From NCBI GenBank assembly GCA_041567315.1, contig JBFGCA010000005.1, positions 10,858 through 74,857 on the forward strand: a stretch of DNA of 64,000 bases, in the 5' to 3' direction. The notes under the pieces are model-generated. The model was not told the origin of the DNA. It searched no databases and saw only the letters and a program-made list of their open reading frames with translations. A program made the translations under genes and the position numbers. How positions within the stretch are numbered: the first letter of the stretch is position 1; each line of letters begins with the position of its first letter. Source of the stretch: Thermoanaerobaculia bacterium (GTDB taxonomy: Bacteria; Acidobacteriota; Thermoanaerobaculia; Multivoradales; JAHEKO01). Positions 19,894-27,294 of this stretch are shown in pieces.

Positions 19894-20238
19894 GGACGGT
19901 TCCTCCACGGAGCAGGTGCGGGGGCGACGCGAGGGACCCACCGCCCCGGGGAAAGCGGCACCACCATTCTGACAGCTCCTCTCAGAGGCTCGCATTGTTC
20001 ACTTTGTGACTCGGCGCCGCGGCAGCGTCGAGACGCCGCAGTGGGTACAGGCACCGCGGGTGACGGTCCCCACCGGCTGGCCGGCCGGGCGAAACCCCGG
20101 CCGCTCGACCGCCGTAGAGGCCGATGAGTCACCTGGCGGCCGCCCCGCGGGCGCCGATTCGTGTCCTCGCGTCGCGCCAGCCGGGCTGGCGCCCGGTCTC
20201 GCCGATCGCCCGGCCGAGAGCCCAAGGAGGTCCCTTCC

Positions 20239-22098
20239 ATGCGCAGAGTCGTCATCGCTATCCTCGCCGCCGTGCTGACTGCAGGCAACGCCGCCGCCGC
20301 CGACCTCGAGGCCGGGCGCCGCGCCCTCGCCGAGCGCCTCGACGCCCTCCACGCCAACCCCGAGGGGCTGTCGGCGAGCGAGCGCCTGGAGGCCTACGTC
20401 GACCTCTTCTACGACTGGGTGATGTTCGAGCACCCCGAGTTCGCCACCTCGATCGGCCACCCCGAGGGCCACGACCGGTGGACCGACAACACCCTCGAAG
20501 GCATCGCCTGGCGCGAAGCCGAGACGGCACGGGCTCTCGAGGCGCTGCGGTCGATCGACCGCGCCGCGCTGACGGACGAGGAGCGGCTGAACTACGACCT
20601 GCTGCTCCGCGACCTGGAGCTCAACGTCGCCGGCGACCGCTTCCCCGGCAAGTACCTGGCCATCAACCAGATGGGCGGCGTGCAGCAGAACGTGGCGCGG
20701 ATGCTGGCCATCATGCAGGCCGGCACCGTCGAGCAGTACGAGGACGTCCTGGCCCGGCTGCGCGGCGTCCCGGCGCTGGTCGACCAGACCATCGTGCGCC
20801 TCGAGAAGGGGCTCGAGACCGGGGTCACCCCGCCCAGGGTGACGCTCCGCGACCTGCCCCAGCAGGTCCGCAACCTGCTGGTCGAGGAGCCGCTCGAGAG
20901 CCCGATGCTCAAGGCCTTCAACGAGTTTCCCGCCGACCTGCCGGCCGCCGAGCAGACGCGGCTGCGCGACGAGGCCGTCGAGGTCTTCCGCGACCAGGTC
21001 GCGCCGGCCTACCGGCGGCTCCTGGCCTACGTCGAGGAGACCTACCTGCCAGGCGCCCGCGAGGAGATCGCGATGAGCGCGCTCCCCGACGGCGAGGCCT
21101 GGTACGCCCTGCGGGTCAGGGAGATGACCACCACCGACCTCAACCCGCGCCAGATCCACGAGATCGGGCTCGCCGAGGTGGCCCGCATCCGCGCCGAGAT
21201 GGACCGGGTGATCGCCGAGTCCGGCTTCGAGGGCACCTTCGAGGAGTTCACCGAGTTCCTGCGCACCGACCCGCGCTTCTACTTCGAGACCCCCGAGGAG
21301 CTGCTCCGTGCCTACCGCGACATCGCCAAGCGCGCCGACGCCGAGCTGCCCGCCCTGTTCCGCACCCTGCCGCGGCTGCCCTACGGCATCGTGCCGGTGC
21401 CGGCCTACGCCGAGAAGTCGCAGACCACCGCCTACTACGAGCGCGGCTCGCTCGAGGCCGGGCGCCCCGGCCGCTTTTTCGCCAACACCTACGACCTGCC
21501 CAGCCGGCCGAGCTGGGAGATGGAGGCGCTGACCCTCCACGAGGCGGTGCCCGGGCACCACCTGCAGATCGCCATTGCCCAGGAGCTCGAGGACCTGCCC
21601 TGGTTCCGGCGCTTCGGCGGCGAGACCGCCTTCATCGAGGGCTGGGGCCTCTATGCCGAGAGCCTGGGCGAGGAGATGGGCTTCTACCAGGACCCCTACG
21701 CCAAGTTCGGGCAGCTCACCTACGAGATCTGGCGCGCCATCCGCCTGGTGGTCGACACCGGCATGCACGCCCTGGGCTGGAGCCGCCAGCAGGCGATCGA
21801 CTACTTCCGCGAGAACACCGGCAAGGCCGAGCACGACATAACAGTCGAAGTCGACCGCTACATCGTCTGGCCCGGCCAGGCCCTGGCCTACAAGATCGGC
21901 GAGCTCAAGATCAAAGAGCTCCGCGCCATGGCCAAGCAGGAGCTCGGCGAGCGCTTCGACCTCCGCGCCTTCCACGACCGCCTGCTCGCCAACGGCGCCC
22001 TCCCCCTCTCGGTCCTCGAGACCCACGTCGAAGAGTGGGTCACCGCCCAGAAGGCGGCCGCGGACGGCGACGTCCAGCTAGCCGCCGGCGGCGGCTAG
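20239..22098 (+). CDS. DUF885 domain-containing protein (secreted)
   Basis: ATG at 20239 preceded by aaggagg. Signal peptide MRRVVIAILAAVLTAGNAAAA. Conserved DUF885 core with HEAVPGHHLQ and GWGLYAE motifs. Confidence 0.75.
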   Translation: MRRVVIAILAAVLTAGNAAAADLEAGRRALAERLDALHANPEGLSASERLEAYVDLFYDWVMFEHPEFATSIGHPEGHDRWTDNTLEGIAWREAETARALEALRSIDRAALTDEERLNYDLLLRDLELNVAGDRFPGKYLAINQMGGVQQNVARMLAIMQAGTVEQYEDVLARLRGVPALVDQTIVRLEKGLETGVTPPRVTLRDLPQQVRNLLVEEPLESPMLKAFNEFPADLPAAEQTRLRDEAVEVFRDQVAPAYRRLLAYVEETYLPGAREEIAMSALPDGEAWYALRVREMTTTDLNPRQIHEIGLAEVARIRAEMDRVIAESGFEGTFEEFTEFLRTDPRFYFETPEELLRAYRDIAKRADAELPALFRTLPRLPYGIVPVPAYAEKSQTTAYYERGSLEAGRPGRFFANTYDLPSRPSWEMEALTLHEAVPGHHLQIAIAQELEDLPWFRRFGGETAFIEGWGLYAESLGEEMGFYQDPYAKFGQLTYEIWRAIRLVVDTGMHALGWSRQQAIDYFRENTGKAEHDITVEVDRYIVWPGQALAYKIGELKIKELRAMAKQELGERFDLRAFHDRLLANGALPLSVLETHVEEWVTAQKAAADGDVQLAAGGG

Positions 22099-23975
22099 AA
22101 CTCGTCGCACTGGGTAACCCCTTCGCACCAGTTGGCCAGGGTGGCCCAGTTGGACCAGGTGGTGCCGAATTCACTGGTCACCACACAGCGGTATCTGCCG
22201 AAGTCCTGTTCCTGGACGTTGTGGACCTGCAAGAAGGTCGTCGTGGTGCCGGAGAAGGTCCCGTTCCCGTCGACGAGATTGACCGGCAGTCCGCCCTTGA
22301 CCTCCTGCTGCCACTGGTAGGCAAGCGTGCCTTCACCGGTGGCGCGGACCTCGAACCACCCCAAGCCGCCGTAGGGGGCCAGGACGTCCTGGGGCTGCAT
22401 CGTGATGACCGGTGCGAGCGACACCTCGAGGTGGAGCGCCGCCGGGGTGGACGACCACGGGCTCGAGAGGGTCACGGTCGTGCCTGCCGGAGTGACCGTG
22501 CCGGTCGAGGTCGCGCCGTCGGTGACCCGAAACCACTGGTAGTCATAGACGACGCCGCTCTGGACGGCCGACAGCGAGACGACCGCCTGGTTCGCCGGCT
22601 TGTACGCCAGGTACTCGTCGCCCGGGTCGGCGAGCGCGAAGTTCGTGCTCGAGAGATTTCCGCGGGGCGCCATCGCCGCGAGGCCGATCTGCTCGGACCA
22701 TCCCTTGATGTGGCTCATGCTGTCGCGCAGCGCCAGGTGATGCGGCAGCTCGACGAGACCCCACGGGTTGTCCTCGAAGTGAGAGTCCATGAACGCGAAG
22801 TGGTACCCGCGCGTGAAGGCCTTCCAGCTCCAGCCTCGCGGGTCGGTGATGATCGGTGGTGGGTTGCCGCCGCCCTGACAGCCGCCGCAGATGTGATCGG
22901 TGTCGAGGATGATGATCCGACCCAGCGCGGCCGACCCGGGGTACCGGAAGTTGTTGGGCGGTGGCCCGCCGTTCTGACCGTTGAAGTCTCCTGACACCCC
23001 GGGTGCCGATCGCCCGTTCGGGGACAGCACCTCCGCATCGGTGCTCAGCAGCAGGCCGTTCACCAGGTGGTTCCTGCCCGGCTGGACCATCGCGCTCATC
23101 CACACCGGATGGGGGTCGTAGCCCTGGGTCGTCTCCCAGCTTCGGATCTCGGCCATGATCTGCTCCTGCCATTCGAAGCCCTCCCAGGGTGCGGCGTTGC
23201 CGACCCAGCCCTCGTTGCCGACCTCCCAGATCACCGGCAGGTGGTGCAGCTCGTCGACGACCTGCCGCAGGTAGTGCCGCTGCTGGTCGAACAGGTCGGA
23301 GTCCACCGGCGGGTAGGTCGACGTCTCCCATCCCTCGCAGTCGTTGTTCGGGTCCCCGTCGATGCCGTTGACGTTGTTGTCGCGCTGGAACCCGTGGGTG
23401 TACCAGTCGAAATCCTCCTCGGCCAGGTTGCCTCCCACCAGCACGCAGTTCTGCTGGCGGTCGCCGTAGGTGATCGGCTCGAAGAACATGACGCTCATGG
23501 AGACGCCCCGCTGGAGGGCGTCGCCGACGCGGGAGTCGACCCTGTTGATGTAGCTCAGGTTCAGCAGGTCCAGGTTGACCTTCGGGCGGCCGTCGTTGCC
23601 GGTCCCCGACTGCCGCTGCCAGATCGGCGGGTCGAATCGCATGTCCACCTGGGCCAGGATCGTCGTCTCCCAGGCCCAGCCCCGCATGAAGTTGAAGTCG
23701 TTGTCGATCGTCAGGTAGTCCAGCAGGTCGTTGAAGTCGAGACGGGTCGCATTGGTCGGCCAGGCCCCCTGGCGCCAGTCCTGGAAGTTGTTCCAGACGT
23801 GTGATCCCACCATCAGAACGGCCTTCTGGTCGGGATCGCCCTCCACCATGAAGTACCGCGGGTTGGCCGGGTGGACGATCAAACGGCCGGAGGTCTCGGC
23901 GGCAAAGGCCTCTGCGGCGACGGCCCCCAGGCAGAGGCCGAGTAAGAGCATGATCCGCTGGCATCTCGAGAGCAT
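22095..23975 (-). CDS. Secreted TIM-barrel glycoside-hydrolase-like protein (GH5-like NEGW motif) with a C-terminal immunoglobulin I-set-like domain
   Basis: ATG preceded by gggagg. Signal peptide MLSRCQRIMLLLGLCLGAVAAEAFA. IWEVGNEGW resembles the GH5-type catalytic NE(P) motif. C-terminal ~100 aa carries a canonical Ig-fold D-x-G-x-Y-x-C motif (QEQDFGRYRCVVTSEFG) plus an earlier W (AYQWQQ). Codon usage and GC (~60-62%) are clearly lower than the flanks (~72%). The coordinates are the ORF track's 1881-nt frame (22095-23975). My line count puts the ATG (MLSRCQRI) at 23972-23974, which is out of frame by 1 nt, so the 5' end is uncertain by 1 nt. Confidence 0.6.
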   Translation of the reverse strand: MLSRCQRIMLLLGLCLGAVAAEAFAAETSGRLIVHPANPRYFMVEGDPDQKAVLMVGSHVWNNFQDWRQGAWPTNATRLDFNDLLDYLTIDNDFNFMRGWAWETTILAQVDMRFDPPIWQRQSGTGNDGRPKVNLDLLNLSYINRVDSRVGDALQRGVSMSVMFFEPITYGDRQQNCVLVGGNLAEEDFDWYTHGFQRDNNVNGIDGDPNNDCEGWETSTYPPVDSDLFDQQRHYLRQVVDELHHLPVIWEVGNEGWVGNAAPWEGFEWQEQIMAEIRSWETTQGYDPHPVWMSAMVQPGRNHLVNGLLLSTDAEVLSPNGRSAPGVSGDFNGQNGGPPPNNFRYPGSAALGRIIILDTDHICGGCQGGGNPPPIITDPRGWSWKAFTRGYHFAFMDSHFEDNPWGLVELPHHLALRDSMSHIKGWSEQIGLAAMAPRGNLSSTNFALADPGDEYLAYKPANQAVVSLSAVQSGVVYDYQWFRVTDGATSTGTVTPAGTTVTLSSPWSSTPAALHLEVSLAPVITMQPQDVLAPYGGLGWFEVRATGEGTLAYQWQQEVKGGLPVNLVDGNGTFSGTTTTFLQVHNVQEQDFGRYRCVVTSEFGTTWSNWATLANWCEGVTQCDEF

Positions 23976-24209: not shown

Positions 24210-24491
24210 ATGGCCCGCGTCACCACCTACAGCGACGCCCGCGCCCACCTCAAGAGCTACTGCGACGAGGTCGCCGAGAGCGGCGAGCCGCTGATCATCA
24301 AGCGCCGCTCCGGCGCCGACGTCGCCCTGGTCAGCGTCGACGAGCTGGCCGGCCTGGAAGAGACGGCCCACCTGCTGCGCTCGCCGAAGAGCGTTAAGCG
24401 CCTGTTCGAGTCCCTCGAAGAGGTCCGCTCGGGCGGCGGGGCCGTGCTGACGATCGAGGAGCTGCAGCACAAGCTCGGCCTCGATGGCTGA
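24210..24491 (+). CDS. yefM: Type II toxin-antitoxin system Phd/YefM family antitoxin
   Basis: 93 aa, MARVTTYSDARAHLKSYCDEVAESGEPLIIKRRSGADVALVSVDELAGLEETAHLLRSP, a typical YefM fold sequence. Overlaps the downstream toxin gene by 8 nt. Confidence 0.85.
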   Translation: MARVTTYSDARAHLKSYCDEVAESGEPLIIKRRSGADVALVSVDELAGLEETAHLLRSPKSVKRLFESLEEVRSGGGAVLTIEELQHKLGLDG

Positions 24492-24747
24492 GCGCCGGGC
24501 GGTCTTCTCGACCCACTTTCTCGACGACCTCGACTTCTGGGTGCGGACCGACCGTAAGGTCGCGCGGCGCCTCCTCGCCATCGTCCGGCAGACCCTTCGC
24601 GATCCCTTCCAAGGGATCGGCAAGCCCGAGCCCCTCCGCCGCCGCCTCGCCGGTCTCTGGTCGCGGCGCCTGACCCAGGAGCACCGGGTCGTCTACGAGG
24701 TCACCGCCGACGCGGTCAACTTCCTCCAGGCGCGGTACCACTACTGA
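24484..24747 (+). CDS. yoeB: Txe/YoeB family addiction module toxin (ribosome-dependent mRNA interferase)
   Basis: 87 aa, FSTHFLDDLDFWVRTDRKVARRLLAIVRQTLRDPFQGIGKPEPLRRRLAGLWSRRLTQEHRVVYEV, ending ...RYHY with YoeB catalytic residues. Confidence 0.85.
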   Translation: MAERRAVFSTHFLDDLDFWVRTDRKVARRLLAIVRQTLRDPFQGIGKPEPLRRRLAGLWSRRLTQEHRVVYEVTADAVNFLQARYHY

Positions 24748-24807: not shown

Positions 24808-25626
24808 TCAGTGCAGCTCGTCGAGGTCGGCCACGCACCGCTCCAGCTCACCCAGGAGCGCTAGGCCGGCGTCGGTCAGGAGATGGTCCTTGGAGCGCAG
24901 CTCTGCGACGGTGGGCTTCAGCGGCTCGAGGAACTTGCGCGACCGCTCGGGCGTCGCCGCCTTGGCGAAGAAATCAGCCAGCGCGGCCGCGACACAGGCC
25001 GAATGGAAGGCGAGGTCGTAGGGTCGCCGCGTCTTGAGAACGGCGCTGAGCACCAGCGCGTCCTGGCCCGTCATCTCGCGCGGCTCGCGGACGAACAGGC
25101 GCCGGACCATGTCGCGGAGAAACACGCCCTGGTGCGTCGCCTCGTGGAGGATGGTCTCGGCGTAGTCCACGGCGTCCCACGAGGGGGACGGATCGAACCA
25201 GACGACCCCCAGCGAGTCCCCGAAGCTGCCGCCGCCGACCCCGGACTCCCTGGCGCACAGGAAGCAGCCGACCAGCAGGTCGATCGCCTCGACGACCCGG
25301 GGGTCGTACCGCTCCAGCAGCTCGAACCCGGCCCGGGCCTCCTCGCGGATCTCGGCCTGCTCGTCTTCGCTGAAGGCATGCTCCTCGGTCACCTGATCGA
25401 CCTTCAGGAAGTGCCGGACGATCGGGAGGTTGACGGGATGGAGAACCTCGAAATCGAAGAAAGGACCGCCACCATCCGCCGATGTCCGGAACGGCCGCGG
25501 CTGCACCCGGTTGAGAGCGGCGAAGTACCCAGCCGGCAGCTCCGGCCGCGCCGACTCCGGCTTCACGAACTCGACGAGGAGATGGGCGCTGCCCCTCACC
25601 TCGTCGGGATCGAGAACAGTCAACAT
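24808..25626 (-). CDS. HEXXH motif domain-containing protein (possible aKG-HExxH-type peptide-modifying enzyme; not a classical zincin)
   Basis: ATG at 25626. 272 aa with a single HEATH motif in AETILHEATHQGVF. No signal peptide, and no other protease motifs recognised. Family assignment (mod_HExxH-like, TIGR04267) is from recalled similarity only. Confidence 0.5.
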   Translation of the reverse strand: MLTVLDPDEVRGSAHLLVEFVKPESARPELPAGYFAALNRVQPRPFRTSADGGGPFFDFEVLHPVNLPIVRHFLKVDQVTEEHAFSEDEQAEIREEARAGFELLERYDPRVVEAIDLLVGCFLCARESGVGGGSFGDSLGVVWFDPSPSWDAVDYAETILHEATHQGVFLRDMVRRLFVREPREMTGQDALVLSAVLKTRRPYDLAFHSACVAAALADFFAKAATPERSRKFLEPLKPTVAELRSKDHLLTDAGLALLGELERCVADLDELH

Positions 25627-25714
25627 CGAAGGCTCAGGAGCCTCGGCCGGCGCTAAACGCAGGCGGTGTCCGGCGCTGCGCGCGACAGCGTCGAATCGCG
25701 AGCAGAGACCTCCG

Positions 25715-25990
25715 CTAGCCCTGCGGCTCGGGCTTCGCGGGCGTCACCTCGCTCACGCTCTCCCGCTGCAGCCTCAAGAACCGCTTGATGTTGACGGCGG
25801 TCATCTCGGCCGACGCCGCGGTCTCCTCGGCCGCCTCGACCAGCACGGGGGGCAGGATGATGACCTGCGTCGCTTCCGCCTGCTGCACCCTCAGGTACCG
25901 GCGAATGTTCGCCGCCGCCCTCTCGGCGGCCCGTCTCGCCGCCTCGGCCGCTCTGAGCGCCTCCTTCGCCGCCTCTTCGGCGTTGCTCAT
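25715..25990 (-). CDS. Small Ala/Glu/Arg-rich protein (91 aa) with an internal tandem repeat (NIRRYLRVQ / NIKRFLRLQ); function unknown, possible peptide substrate
   Basis: ATG at 25990 (codon arithmetic), preceded by ggaaggaggcgtgcg (strong Shine-Dalgarno). Sequence MSNAEEAAKEALRAAEAARRAAERAAANIRRYLRVQQAEATQVIILPPVLVEAAEETAASAEMTAVNIKRFLRLQRESVSEVTPAKPEPQG. Sits 88 nt upstream of, and co-directional with, the HEXXH protein gene. Confidence 0.55.
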   Translation of the reverse strand: MSNAEEAAKEALRAAEAARRAAERAAANIRRYLRVQQAEATQVIILPPVLVEAAEETAASAEMTAVNIKRFLRLQRESVSEVTPAKPEPQG

Positions 25991-26307
25991 CGCACGCCTC
26001 CTTCCAAAGCCATTCAGTTGGAGCGACCCGGCCAAGGTACCACAGGCCCGACGCCCTTCGCGTCCACGGCGAGCGGTACCATCGGCGGAGGAGCCACGAA
26101 GGGCCAGGTTCTGAAACGGAGGATCCATCTCGCTCGCACCCACGAAGCGCACGCCCTGGGCGAAGACCACCTCCACCGGGAAGCGGTCACGCGCGCGGCC
26201 CCGCCGCGCTCGCCAGCCGACCCAACGGACTTACACCACGGGCTGCTAGGCGGAGCGGGCCGCCGGGGCGGCCGCGCACCCCTTGAACGGCCGGGCCGGC
26301 GGCCGGC

Positions 26308-27294
26308 TCAGGCGAGGTGGCGCTGCTCGCCGACCGCGTAGGCCTCGCGGACCCAGTCCAGCACTTCCTTGTCGAGGTCCTCGGCCCTCGTCACCCGCAG
26401 CAGGTGGACGTGGTCGGTGGGGGTCAGGGTCTCGACCTTGCGGAAGCGCGGGCTCTCGACCCGCTTGGGGAGCCAGAAGCCGACGTCGAGCCAGCGCTTC
26501 TTCGGCGTCGCGCCGAGGAAGCGCACCCGGACCAGGAAGGCGACGTGGTCACGGTAGGCCTGGACGTGGACCGGCCCCACGGATTCGACCATCGTTCGCA
26601 GGTGCTGGAAGAGCCGACGGACCGCCGGCATGCTGCGGGCGAAGGGCTCGTCGAGCGAGTAGTGCCGGCAGCTGTGCCACTGGTTGGGGTTGACGAAGAC
26701 GTGGCCACACTTCGGGCAGGTCCACAGCGGTCGCCGCCGCAGCGCGGCCCGGCCCGTCTTGACTGGGCCCTTCTTGACGGGCCCGGTCTCGCCCTTGACC
26801 TGGGCCACGAGGACCTCGATCCGCTGGGCTCGTCGCTCGGCGGTCTCGGCTACGTCCACCCAGCGCTGCAGCTCGTGCCGGTGGCTGGCGCTCTTGGCGG
26901 CGAAGGCGGCGGTCGCCCCGGCCTTCCGTAGCGCCGCCGCCATGTCCCGGGCGACCGGCACCTCCTCCCAGGGCACGGCCCGCAGCACGAGCTCCACCCG
27001 GTCGCCGGCCGCGATCCTGGCGCCGGCGGCGGATCGGCCGGCGCCACGGACTCGTCTGCCGAACCCCGCCCGCGCCGCCGCGCGCATCCCGGCGTGGAGG
27101 AACAGCCAGTGTCCGCCGCCGCGCGGCACCAGGCTCCCGCGGATCTCGGTCCCCTCGAGCGTCCCGAAGACCCGCACGCGGCCGCGGTCGGCGTAGCGCG
27201 AGAAGACCGTGGCCACCGAGGCGGGAACGACCACGTAGAAGTTGGGTCCCTGCTTCAGGACCTCCGCAGTGAAGCGCTGGGGTCGGGAGGGCAC
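26308..27294 (-). CDS. DUF1905 / YdeI-OmpD-associated / DUF5655 multi-domain protein
   Basis: N-terminal DUF1905-like segment (VVVPASVATVFSRYADRGRVRVFGTLEGTEIRGSLVPRGGGHWLFLH). Middle YdeI/OmpD-associated-like region. C-terminal CPKCGHVF...WHSCRHYS Cys/His cluster, DUF5655-like. Confidence 0.6.
   Translation of the reverse strand: MPSRPQRFTAEVLKQGPNFYVVVPASVATVFSRYADRGRVRVFGTLEGTEIRGSLVPRGGGHWLFLHAGMRAAARAGFGRRVRGAGRSAAGARIAAGDRVELVLRAVPWEEVPVARDMAAALRKAGATAAFAAKSASHRHELQRWVDVAETAERRAQRIEVLVAQVKGETGPVKKGPVKTGRAALRRRPLWTCPKCGHVFVNPNQWHSCRHYSLDEPFARSMPAVRRLFQHLRTMVESVGPVHVQAYRDHVAFLVRVRFLGATPKKRWLDVGFWLPKRVESPRFRKVETLTPTDHVHLLRVTRAEDLDKEVLDWVREAYAVGEQRHLA

Follow-up and report, generated by a model that had tools for sequence, protein, structure and literature searches.

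The 64,000-nucleotide window analysed here, a part of contig JBFGCA010000005.1 of a Thermoanaerobaculia bacterium (Acidobacteriota), contains on its minus strand a gene for a small protein of 91 amino acids (25715..25990 including the stop codon, with the ATG at 25990 and the stop at 25715), which is followed by a gene for a protein of 272 amino acids (24808..25626 including the stop codon). Taken together, the evidence indicates that this pair is probably a minimal cassette of the type that gives rise to peptides made on the ribosome and modified after translation (RiPPs), consisting of a two-unit substrate peptide and a stand-alone Fe(II)/2-oxoglutarate oxygenase of the aKG-HExxH family. No paper on this cassette was found in the literature searched; in all likelihood, the pair is a minimal system for peptide modification that has not been described before, as opposed to a zinc protease whose neighbour has nothing to do with it. 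A preliminary description of the region had proposed a substrate/modifier pair, an interpretation that the family model, the linkage of the two genes and the coding signal of the smaller one support at the level of sequence: the enzyme does not resemble an ordinary zinc peptidase unlinked to the small protein, and the small open reading frame (ORF) is conserved as coding.

The enzyme and its linkage to the peptide gene

The 272-residue protein very probably belongs to the aKG-HExxH family with respect to both family and fold, because a family model, a ChlB-like fold and invariant residues that align with a structurally characterized oxygenase all point in this direction. The NCBIfam model TIGR04267 (mod_HExxH, 'aKG-HExxH-type peptide beta-hydroxylase'; IPR026337) matches the protein with 62.3 bits (E 5.6e-17) against a curated cut-off of 40 bits, and the match spans positions 2-176 of the 177 positions of the profile, while no Pfam family, peptidase models included, was found at E <= 1; the comparison of mod_HExxH with peptidase models that had been proposed as a check thus came out in favor of the former. 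The sole HExxH motif of the protein, H161-E-A-T-H165 (25132..25146, minus strand), is the lone HEATH that had been noticed in this ORF, which is indeed co-directional with the small one; it is invariant in the aligned relatives and aligns with HEHRH of ChlH, the HExxH domain of ChlB.

The AlphaFold2 model of the enzyme, built from ten relatives, is confident (predicted local distance difference test, pLDDT, 93.4; predicted template modelling score, pTM, 0.92) and places HEATH inside a helix (residues 152-175) beside a zincin-like sheet (strands 121-124, 131-133 and 141-145), the location expected of the active-site helix of the aKG-HExxH family. When this model was compared with known structures using Foldseek, the ChlB HExxH-domain oxygenase (8s5f) was retrieved first, with E 2.5e-8, followed by SjiH (22ob), whereas the best zinc-peptidase structure was 4l7a (E 0.42, template modelling score 0.35), so that the predicted fold is that of the ChlB HExxH domain as distinct from ordinary zincin peptidase folds. 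A search of all Protein Data Bank (PDB) sequences with a profile of the relatives found ChlH alone, with an E value of 0.075; in this weak alignment, HEATHQ is matched to HEHRHQ and R201-P...H208 to R-P...H.

Across ten diverse relatives, Y34, S134, G140, P146, W150, H161, E162, H165, F169, S194, R201, P202, D204 and H208 are invariant. From this conservation and the ChlH profile alignment, R201, D204 and H208, which lie in a second conserved block (R201-P-Y-D-L-A-F-H208; 25003..25026, minus strand), are candidate 2-oxoglutarate- or metal-binding residues. PMC12614342, which cites Morishita 2024, gives as traits of the family one or more positively charged 2-oxoglutarate-binding residues and a third ligand of the metal in the neighbourhood of the HExxH pair.

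Close homologues of the enzyme are very rare (9 clusters among 5.8 billion). Seven close loci were compared, namely the window itself, L050, whose DNA is 99.6% identical to it, L048, L049, L006/L007 (with L001), L002 and L009; L006/L007 belongs to a Bryobacterales metagenome-assembled genome (MAG), which has a GC content of 0.62 and is the closest named relative of the cassette; the higher value of the window, 0.73, suggests that the two belong to different lineages. At 7/7 close loci having upstream sequence, a gene for a two-repeat peptide of 88-93 amino acids is present directly upstream of the enzyme gene on the same strand, and the proposed test of gene-neighbourhood conservation thus confirms that the two are linked. 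The flanking genes, by comparison, are unrelated, comprising genes for a Ser/Thr kinase and a PSD-domain protein in L006, for GGDEF/EAL proteins in L002, and for a toxin-antitoxin system and a DUF1905 protein in the window, and no gene besides the pair is common to the window, L006, L002 and L049. Because the flanks differ between loci, the conserved unit is the pair alone; it has the arrangement of a RiPP cluster, in that a short precursor gene is adjacent to, co-oriented with and co-inherited with the gene for the enzyme.

Two observations on individual loci should be mentioned here. L001 is the counterpart of L006 in another assembly of this locus and is essentially identical to it apart from an insertion sequence with a DDE_3 transposase (L001 4806-5822 versus L006 8271-8316), which lies between the peptide and hydroxylase genes and shortens the N-terminus of the hydroxylase (242 versus 282 amino acids), a polymorphic disruption of the cassette. 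The short enzyme of L002 (P0006, 151 amino acids) was considered as a pseudogene, a notion that was rejected, as the shortness reflects a scaffold gap filled with Ns.

Substitution rates provide a second line of evidence. Compared with the window, synonymous sites of the peptide gene are saturated and the nonsynonymous rate (dN) is 0.22-0.27; the ratio of nonsynonymous to synonymous rates (dN/dS) of the peptide gene is 0.10 for the window versus L006, and 0.36-0.38 for L006 versus L002 and L009. The dN values of peptide and enzyme genes are nearly equal (0.22/0.23, 0.27/0.26 and 0.17/0.17). Judged by these rates, both genes are under purifying selection, and the possibility of a spurious small ORF, for which a Ka/Ks analysis had been suggested, was rejected on the basis of dN/dS values of 0.10-0.38 together with conservation.

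The expression signals of the two genes differ in strength. The peptide gene has the strong ribosome-binding site (RBS) that had been ascribed to it, a Shine-Dalgarno sequence AGGAGG (25997..26002, minus strand) 6 nt before the ATG, and the enzyme gene has a weak one only, GAGG about 16 nt upstream, which suggests, from sequence, that the substrate is made in excess over the catalyst. The spacer between the genes (25627..25714, minus strand) has a length of 88 nt, compared with 46-100 nt in relatives. No terminator, promoter or sigma-70 consensus was found in it, and its predicted RNA structure is ordinary relative to shuffled sequences (z = 0.8); an attenuator or terminator between the two genes was thus rejected, nothing being above the shuffles.

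The peptide, its relatives and the sister clade

The peptide, MSNAEEAAKEALRAAEAARRAAERAAANIRRYLRVQQAEATQVIILPPVLVEAAEETAASAEMTAVNIKRFLRLQRESVSEVTPAKPEPQG (the translation of the small ORF), lacks a signal sequence and consists of two tandem units, each of which comprises a helix that contains the motif N-I-x-R-[YF]-L-x-[LV]-Q and, after it, a tail without helical structure (QVIILPP in the first and EVTPAKP in the second unit). Two motif copies had been recognized before, A26-A-N-I-R-R-Y-L-R-V-Q36 and A65-V-N-I-K-R-F-L-R-L-Q75, and both are present, although the repeat is longer than had been described: it extends over about 37 residues (11-48 versus 50-87), with a Smith-Waterman score of 67 compared with 25 +/- 4.8 for shuffled sequences (0/5000 shuffles reach 67). 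The AlphaFold2 model of the peptide (pLDDT 80.5) predicts a long helical hairpin with helices at residues 2-39 and 48-81, and with non-helical segments at 40-47 (ATQVIILP) and 82-91 (VTPAKPEPQG). Both motifs fall within the predicted helices: copy 1, N28-I-R-R-Y-L-R-V-Q36 (25883..25909), is the proposed docking face of helix 1, a role based on clade conservation and the model, and copy 2, N67-I-K-R-F-L-R-L-Q75 (25766..25792), lies in helix 2. The first tail or core, A40-T-Q-V-I-I-L-P-P48 (25847..25873), non-helical in the model, is the proposed modification region, and the second, V82-T-P-A-K-P-E-P-Q-G91 (25718..25747), forms the non-helical C-terminus; all four elements are encoded on the minus strand.

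When positions are counted from the Asn of the motif, 0, +1, +4, +5 and +8 lie on a single face of the predicted helix. In the 26 units of the clade that includes the window (the window clade), A-2, N0, I+1, R+3, [YF]+4 and Q+8 are invariant. Conservation extends into the tails, with V+15, [TI]+16 and [PI]+17 each in 25/26 units and a Pro at N+20 in 16 of the 19 units long enough to reach it, and V-T-P-[VAI] is the C-terminal end in most members of the clade. The residues following the motif (N+6 to N+12; 25871-25891 and 25754-25774, minus strand) are basic in the window clade, with Arg or Lys at +6 in 26/26 and at +9 in 23/26 units, whereas the other clades, including the sister clade described below, are acidic at +6 (Glu or Asp in 50/78 units), a charge switch that may co-vary with the surface of the enzyme. 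The window peptide matched no NCBIfam or PADLOC model, and a comparison of this peptide and seven related precursors with Pfam, NCBIfam and PADLOC yielded only far-sub-threshold chance Pfam and NCBIfam matches; as no model of either Pfam or NCBIfam scores above its curated cut-off, the precursor family is uncatalogued.

More distant relatives were collected by scanning metagenomes with the enzyme alignment, which yielded 35 loci, and by scanning genomes, which yielded one Solirubrobacterales locus. A small same-strand ORF with N-I-x-x-[YF]-h is present at 9/9 loci that have a tblastn E value <= 1e-30 and enough upstream DNA; the motif-bearing distant loci are L008, L011, L012, L014-L017, L019 and L020, and their enzymes are 30-38% identical. 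The equivalent ORFs of distant relatives encode 34-69 amino acids with a leader-core layout and hypervariable C-terminal cores. The tails read ...ALIMKAHEQ in the two-unit peptides of L012, L015 and L017, PVVMLLHEDASDESG in the single-unit peptide of L011, HLIMVIHE in L014 and L019, and NMHIHEDEDDED in L008, and the cores of the distant clades usually follow h-M-x-x-H, the His being located 20 residues after the Asn (N+20) in L011, L012, L014, L015, L017 and L019. Still more distant loci (L004, L028 and L031) have R-I-x-x-F followed by N-[AV]-S-M-M-G-G-W-T.

A profile search with the peptide retrieved 25 two-unit peptides, and when 1.84 billion representatives were searched exhaustively with HMMER, 42 matches were obtained at E <= 1e-3, about 35 of which are genuine small peptides. 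P0057 was rejected as a family member, being a leucine-rich repeat protein and a false positive of the peptide profile, and P0041, another large protein, is probably a false positive too. In 78 units outside the window clade, the motif is represented by N in 68, I in 69, R/K in 69 and F/Y in 78, and the best-kept core residues are Met+17 (54), followed by His+20 (43); in some members, a second, C-terminal motif helix has no core after it. The family is thus characterized by a conserved helical motif with clade-specific tails at fixed spacing, an arrangement that occurs twice in the window peptide. The GC content lies between 0.30 and 0.73 in the wider family and between 0.60 and 0.73 in the window clade, a wide range, which implies that the cassette, though rare, occurs in unrelated lineages.

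Two relatives deviate from the common pattern. In L008 (1474-4264; Solirubrobacterales MAG DASSHE010000035.1), a single-unit precursor, which ends in ...NIARFVEEHEMHAANRRNMHIHEDEDDED and whose core contains very many His, Asp and Glu residues, is followed by three tandem aKG-HExxH paralogues. P0060 (237 amino acids) starts with five tandem 16-residue copies of A-A-I-N-I-K-R-Y-L-S-L-N-S-G-x-x-C and continues with an unrelated Ser/Pro-rich region, so that N-I-K-R-Y-L has been multiplied without the usual helix or core.

The sister clade has a larger cluster of five genes, encoding a two-unit L-I-M-[KR]-A-H precursor, two enzymes (HExxH-A and HExxH-B), a cytochrome P450 and a short-chain dehydrogenase/reductase (SDR). 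This cluster occurs in L012 (610-4732), in L044/L045 (L044 4451-8516) and on one JGI contig, and without a called SDR in L046 (4675-7647); a VapBC-like pair is located near it in L012 (6307-7016). No paper on the sister-clade cluster was found, and it is apparently undescribed. In a neighbour-joining tree and by BLAST classing, the enzyme of the window groups with the B paralogues, and its nearest outgroup, L011, has both A and B paralogues. The two-unit architecture, the motif and the spacing of the sister clade are the same as in the window peptide, the first tail of which aligns with the L-I-M-x-A-H core at identical spacing, but A paralogue, P450 and SDR are all gone from the window clade, which has kept one enzyme and has Q-V-(T-P|I-I)-x-x-P in place of the L-I-M-x-A-H core. 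From the comparison of sequences and gene content, the window clade is a reduced form of the sister-clade cassette, and the reduced cassette would be functional, because both of its genes are under purifying selection.

A short pattern is shared by the enzyme and the peptide: residues 34-42 of the enzyme (25501-25527, minus strand) read Y-F-A-A-L-N-R-V-Q within its N-terminal helix, and Y-[FL]-x-x-L-N-x-[ILV]-Q, of which Y34 is invariant, is kept across the A, B and C paralogues and resembles [YF]-L-x-[LV]-Q of the peptide. The resemblance could be fortuitous, or the enzyme could mimic the substrate helix internally.

Proposed recognition and modification, and alternative explanations

Based on linkage and family, the peptide is likely to be the substrate of the enzyme, and a division of each unit into a docking helix and a downstream core is somewhat favored. 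The latter assignment follows from the occurrence, family-wide, of a one-faced helical element at a fixed distance from a clade-specific extended segment, and the members whose second motif helix is not followed by a core also speak for it. The amphipathic helix of each unit would present N, I, R, Y/F, L and Q (0, +1, +3, +4, +5 and +8), and this face would dock on the enzyme. As a result, the stretch located 13-20 residues downstream ([ST]-[QER]-V-[TI]-[PI]-x-x-P), which is non-helical, would come to lie against both the edge strand and the helix that bears HExxH. In zincin-fold proteins, substrates lie against the edge strand and the active-site helix, and the model suggests that the beta-branched tail of the peptide could pair with the edge strand of the zincin-like sheet. 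An iron-oxo species would then hydroxylate one side chain per unit, most likely at the beta carbon.

Which residue is modified can be proposed only tentatively. Candidate sites are Pro at N+17 or N+20, for which PesO provides a precedent, Val at N+15, Thr or Ile at N+16, and Gln at +14. The tails contain neither His nor Asp, which points to hydroxylation of Pro or possibly of an aliphatic residue or Thr. The target residue cannot be transferred from relatives, because the Met/His core is missing from the window clade. Attempts to derive target residues from the co-occurrence of paralogues and features (His with A; R/K+3 with B) were set aside as a weak hint, given the small sample, the lack of a clean separation of B and C, and L016 as a counter-example.

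Several points weigh against the reading of the pair as a RiPP-type cassette with docking helices and cores. ChlH is the one relative with a solved structure, and the enzyme resembles it weakly in sequence (profile E 0.075). A Met/His core, conserved in most of the wider family, is missing in the window clade. Modification could also take place within the strictly conserved motif. Lastly, the genes beside the pair include no conserved one for a protease, an exporter or immunity, which leaves a secreted natural product only a possibility, and the leader peptidase or exporter gene typical of RiPP clusters was not found there; it should be noted that such genes can be located elsewhere in the genome, as is the case for the pfl/pos clusters (PMC12636437).

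The third of these points leads to an alternative in which the motif N-I-x-R-[YF]-L-x-[LV]-Q is hydroxylated, at Asn0, Tyr/Phe+4 or Gln+8, and the tails are irrelevant or are targets of other enzymes. The motif is the only feature common to both repeats and to all clades, the window clade has kept it while the Met/His core disappeared together with paralogue A, P450 and SDR, and Phe and Gln are known targets of aKG-HExxH enzymes (PMC13060819). However, the conserved positions 0, +1, +4, +5 and +8 share one side of a predicted helix, as is usual for binding elements, oxidation normally requires that the target residue be offered in an extended chain, the spacing of motif and core is conserved, and V at N+15 and P at N+20 are likewise conserved in the window clade, so that we regard modification of the motif as unlikely.

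The lack of a conserved protease, exporter or immunity gene, the absence of a signal sequence and the self-contained nature of a two-gene unit found in unrelated settings leave room for another outcome, namely that the hydroxylated product is the full-length helical hairpin, which would stay inside the cell and act as a small-protein switch dependent on O2, iron and 2-oxoglutarate. There is a slight chance that this is the case.

The enzyme might also act mainly by cutting the peptide, by oxidative backbone cleavage or by hydrolysis, and thereby free the units or tails without a separate protease. PflC and PosC of the same family cleave the backbone oxidatively at an ARMD motif, PflC can also hydrolyse (PMC12636437), a two-unit architecture would be sensible if the units are to be separated, and no protease gene is conserved beside the pair. 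Nevertheless, cleavage is improbable as the main activity, as it is known from a single subgroup of the family, the peptide has no ARMD-like motif, and most members of the clade end right after V-T-P-x, which leaves nothing to trim in the second unit. Even more doubtful is a role of the small protein as a scaffold, chaperone, inhibitor or other partner of an enzyme whose true substrate is unlinked: a long helical hairpin is the predicted fold of the peptide, its 91 residues are long for a precursor, and the N-terminal helix of the enzyme contains a similar Y-[FL]-x-x-L-N-x-[ILV]-Q, but a small upstream gene with the stronger RBS is the standard arrangement for a precursor, the 34-69-residue counterparts in relatives have the leader-core layout with hypervariable C-terminal cores, and no other candidate substrate is conserved nearby. 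An ordinary zinc metallopeptidase next to an unrelated or spurious small ORF, which the HExxH motif and the distantly zincin-like arrangement of sheet and active-site helix might have suggested, is effectively refuted by family (TIGR04267, no Pfam peptidase), by fold (4l7a at E 0.42), and by a small ORF that is conserved, under selection and strictly linked.

Comparison with known systems and genomic surroundings

Enzymes of the aKG-HExxH family are iron/2-oxoglutarate oxygenases with a zincin-like scaffold; in ribosomal peptides they beta-hydroxylate His, Asp, Phe, Gln and Pro, and one subgroup cleaves the backbone oxidatively (PMC12636437, PMC13060819, PMC12707348). The HExxH domain of ChlB (ChlH, 8s5f) is the founding oxygenase of the family and acts in triceptide biosynthesis, according to the accounts of Morishita 2024 (Nat Chem) in PMC12636437 and PMC13060819. 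In the weak profile alignment, ChlH and the window enzyme share H-E-x-x-H-Q, R-P and a downstream His, and in both cases a ribosomal peptide is encoded next door, its role as substrate being inferred for the window. The differences are considerable: ChlBH forms a fusion with a radical SAM cyclophane synthase, needs a prior cyclophane and hydroxylates Asp and His, whereas the window enzyme, which is 16% identical to ChlH, is stand-alone and has no radical SAM partner, and its peptide has no cyclophane motif and no His or Asp in the tails.

In functional terms, the closest analogy is offered by PflC/PosC and PosA (Os1348, 85 amino acids) of Pseudomonas (PMC12636437, PMC7726476), which also combine a stand-alone aKG-HExxH enzyme with a long, folded precursor of about 85-90 amino acids and have no protease in the cluster; full-length PosA is detectable in cells (PMC7726476, PMC12636437). 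Unlike the window pair, the Pseudomonas clusters additionally encode a GNAT protein, an MNIO-nitroreductase fusion and transporters, and their precursor has an NHLP-type leader with a single C-terminal core of a Gln run and ARMD, compared with two motif-plus-tail units in the window peptide. A third comparison concerns PesO of the nitrilobacillin pathway (PMC13060819), which beta-hydroxylates Pro, one of the few conserved tail residues in the window clade; the pes cluster, however, includes an MNIO, an Asn-synthetase-like nitrile synthetase, M16 peptidases and a transporter, and its precursor is unrelated to the window peptide. The cassette of the window is thus unlike the characterized aKG-HExxH systems covered by the literature consulted in having no second modifying enzyme, an uncatalogued precursor and two complete putative recognition-plus-core units.

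The aKG-HExxH enzymes were recognized only in 2024, and each one characterized since then has brought a new target residue or reaction. With one enzyme, one peptide and no prerequisite modification, the present cassette would be about the simplest test bed for the family. The proposed recognition rule, in which a helix face N-I-x-R-[YF]-L precedes the target by about 15-20 residues, could help to mine genomes and to target engineered peptides for hydroxylation, and the presence of a recognition element before each core within one peptide would be unusual among RiPP precursors. The pair is a good lead for genome mining and a clean test system, although it is not surprising in kind.

As to the surroundings, the toxin-antitoxin genes that had been noticed next to the pair encode a YefM antitoxin (24210-24491, plus strand) and a YoeB toxin (24484-24747, plus strand), which overlap by 8 nt and run convergently to the hydroxylase gene, the two stop codons being 60 nt apart; they are absent at the other loci of the cassette. 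The preliminary description had also placed the pair in an island of lower conservation, of which base composition gives no sign: the GC content is 0.68-0.70 for the pair, 0.70-0.75 for its surroundings and 0.728 for the whole window, and a compositional island was therefore rejected.

Upstream of the peptide gene and on the same strand, the adjoining gene (26308-27294, minus strand) encodes a 328-residue protein with DUF1905, OmdA and DUF5655 domains and a CxxC...C/H cluster, which is not conserved at related loci; the OmdA label 'bacteriocin-protection, YdeI/OmpD-associated' is suggestive, but no link to the pair was found. On the other side, a protein of 626 amino acids with an N-terminal signal-like segment and a C-terminal immunoglobulin-like domain is encoded at 22095-23975 (minus strand), in the stretch with the lowest GC content of the region (0.64-0.67), and beside it a gene at 20161-22098 (plus strand) encodes a 645-residue protein with HEAVPGHH.

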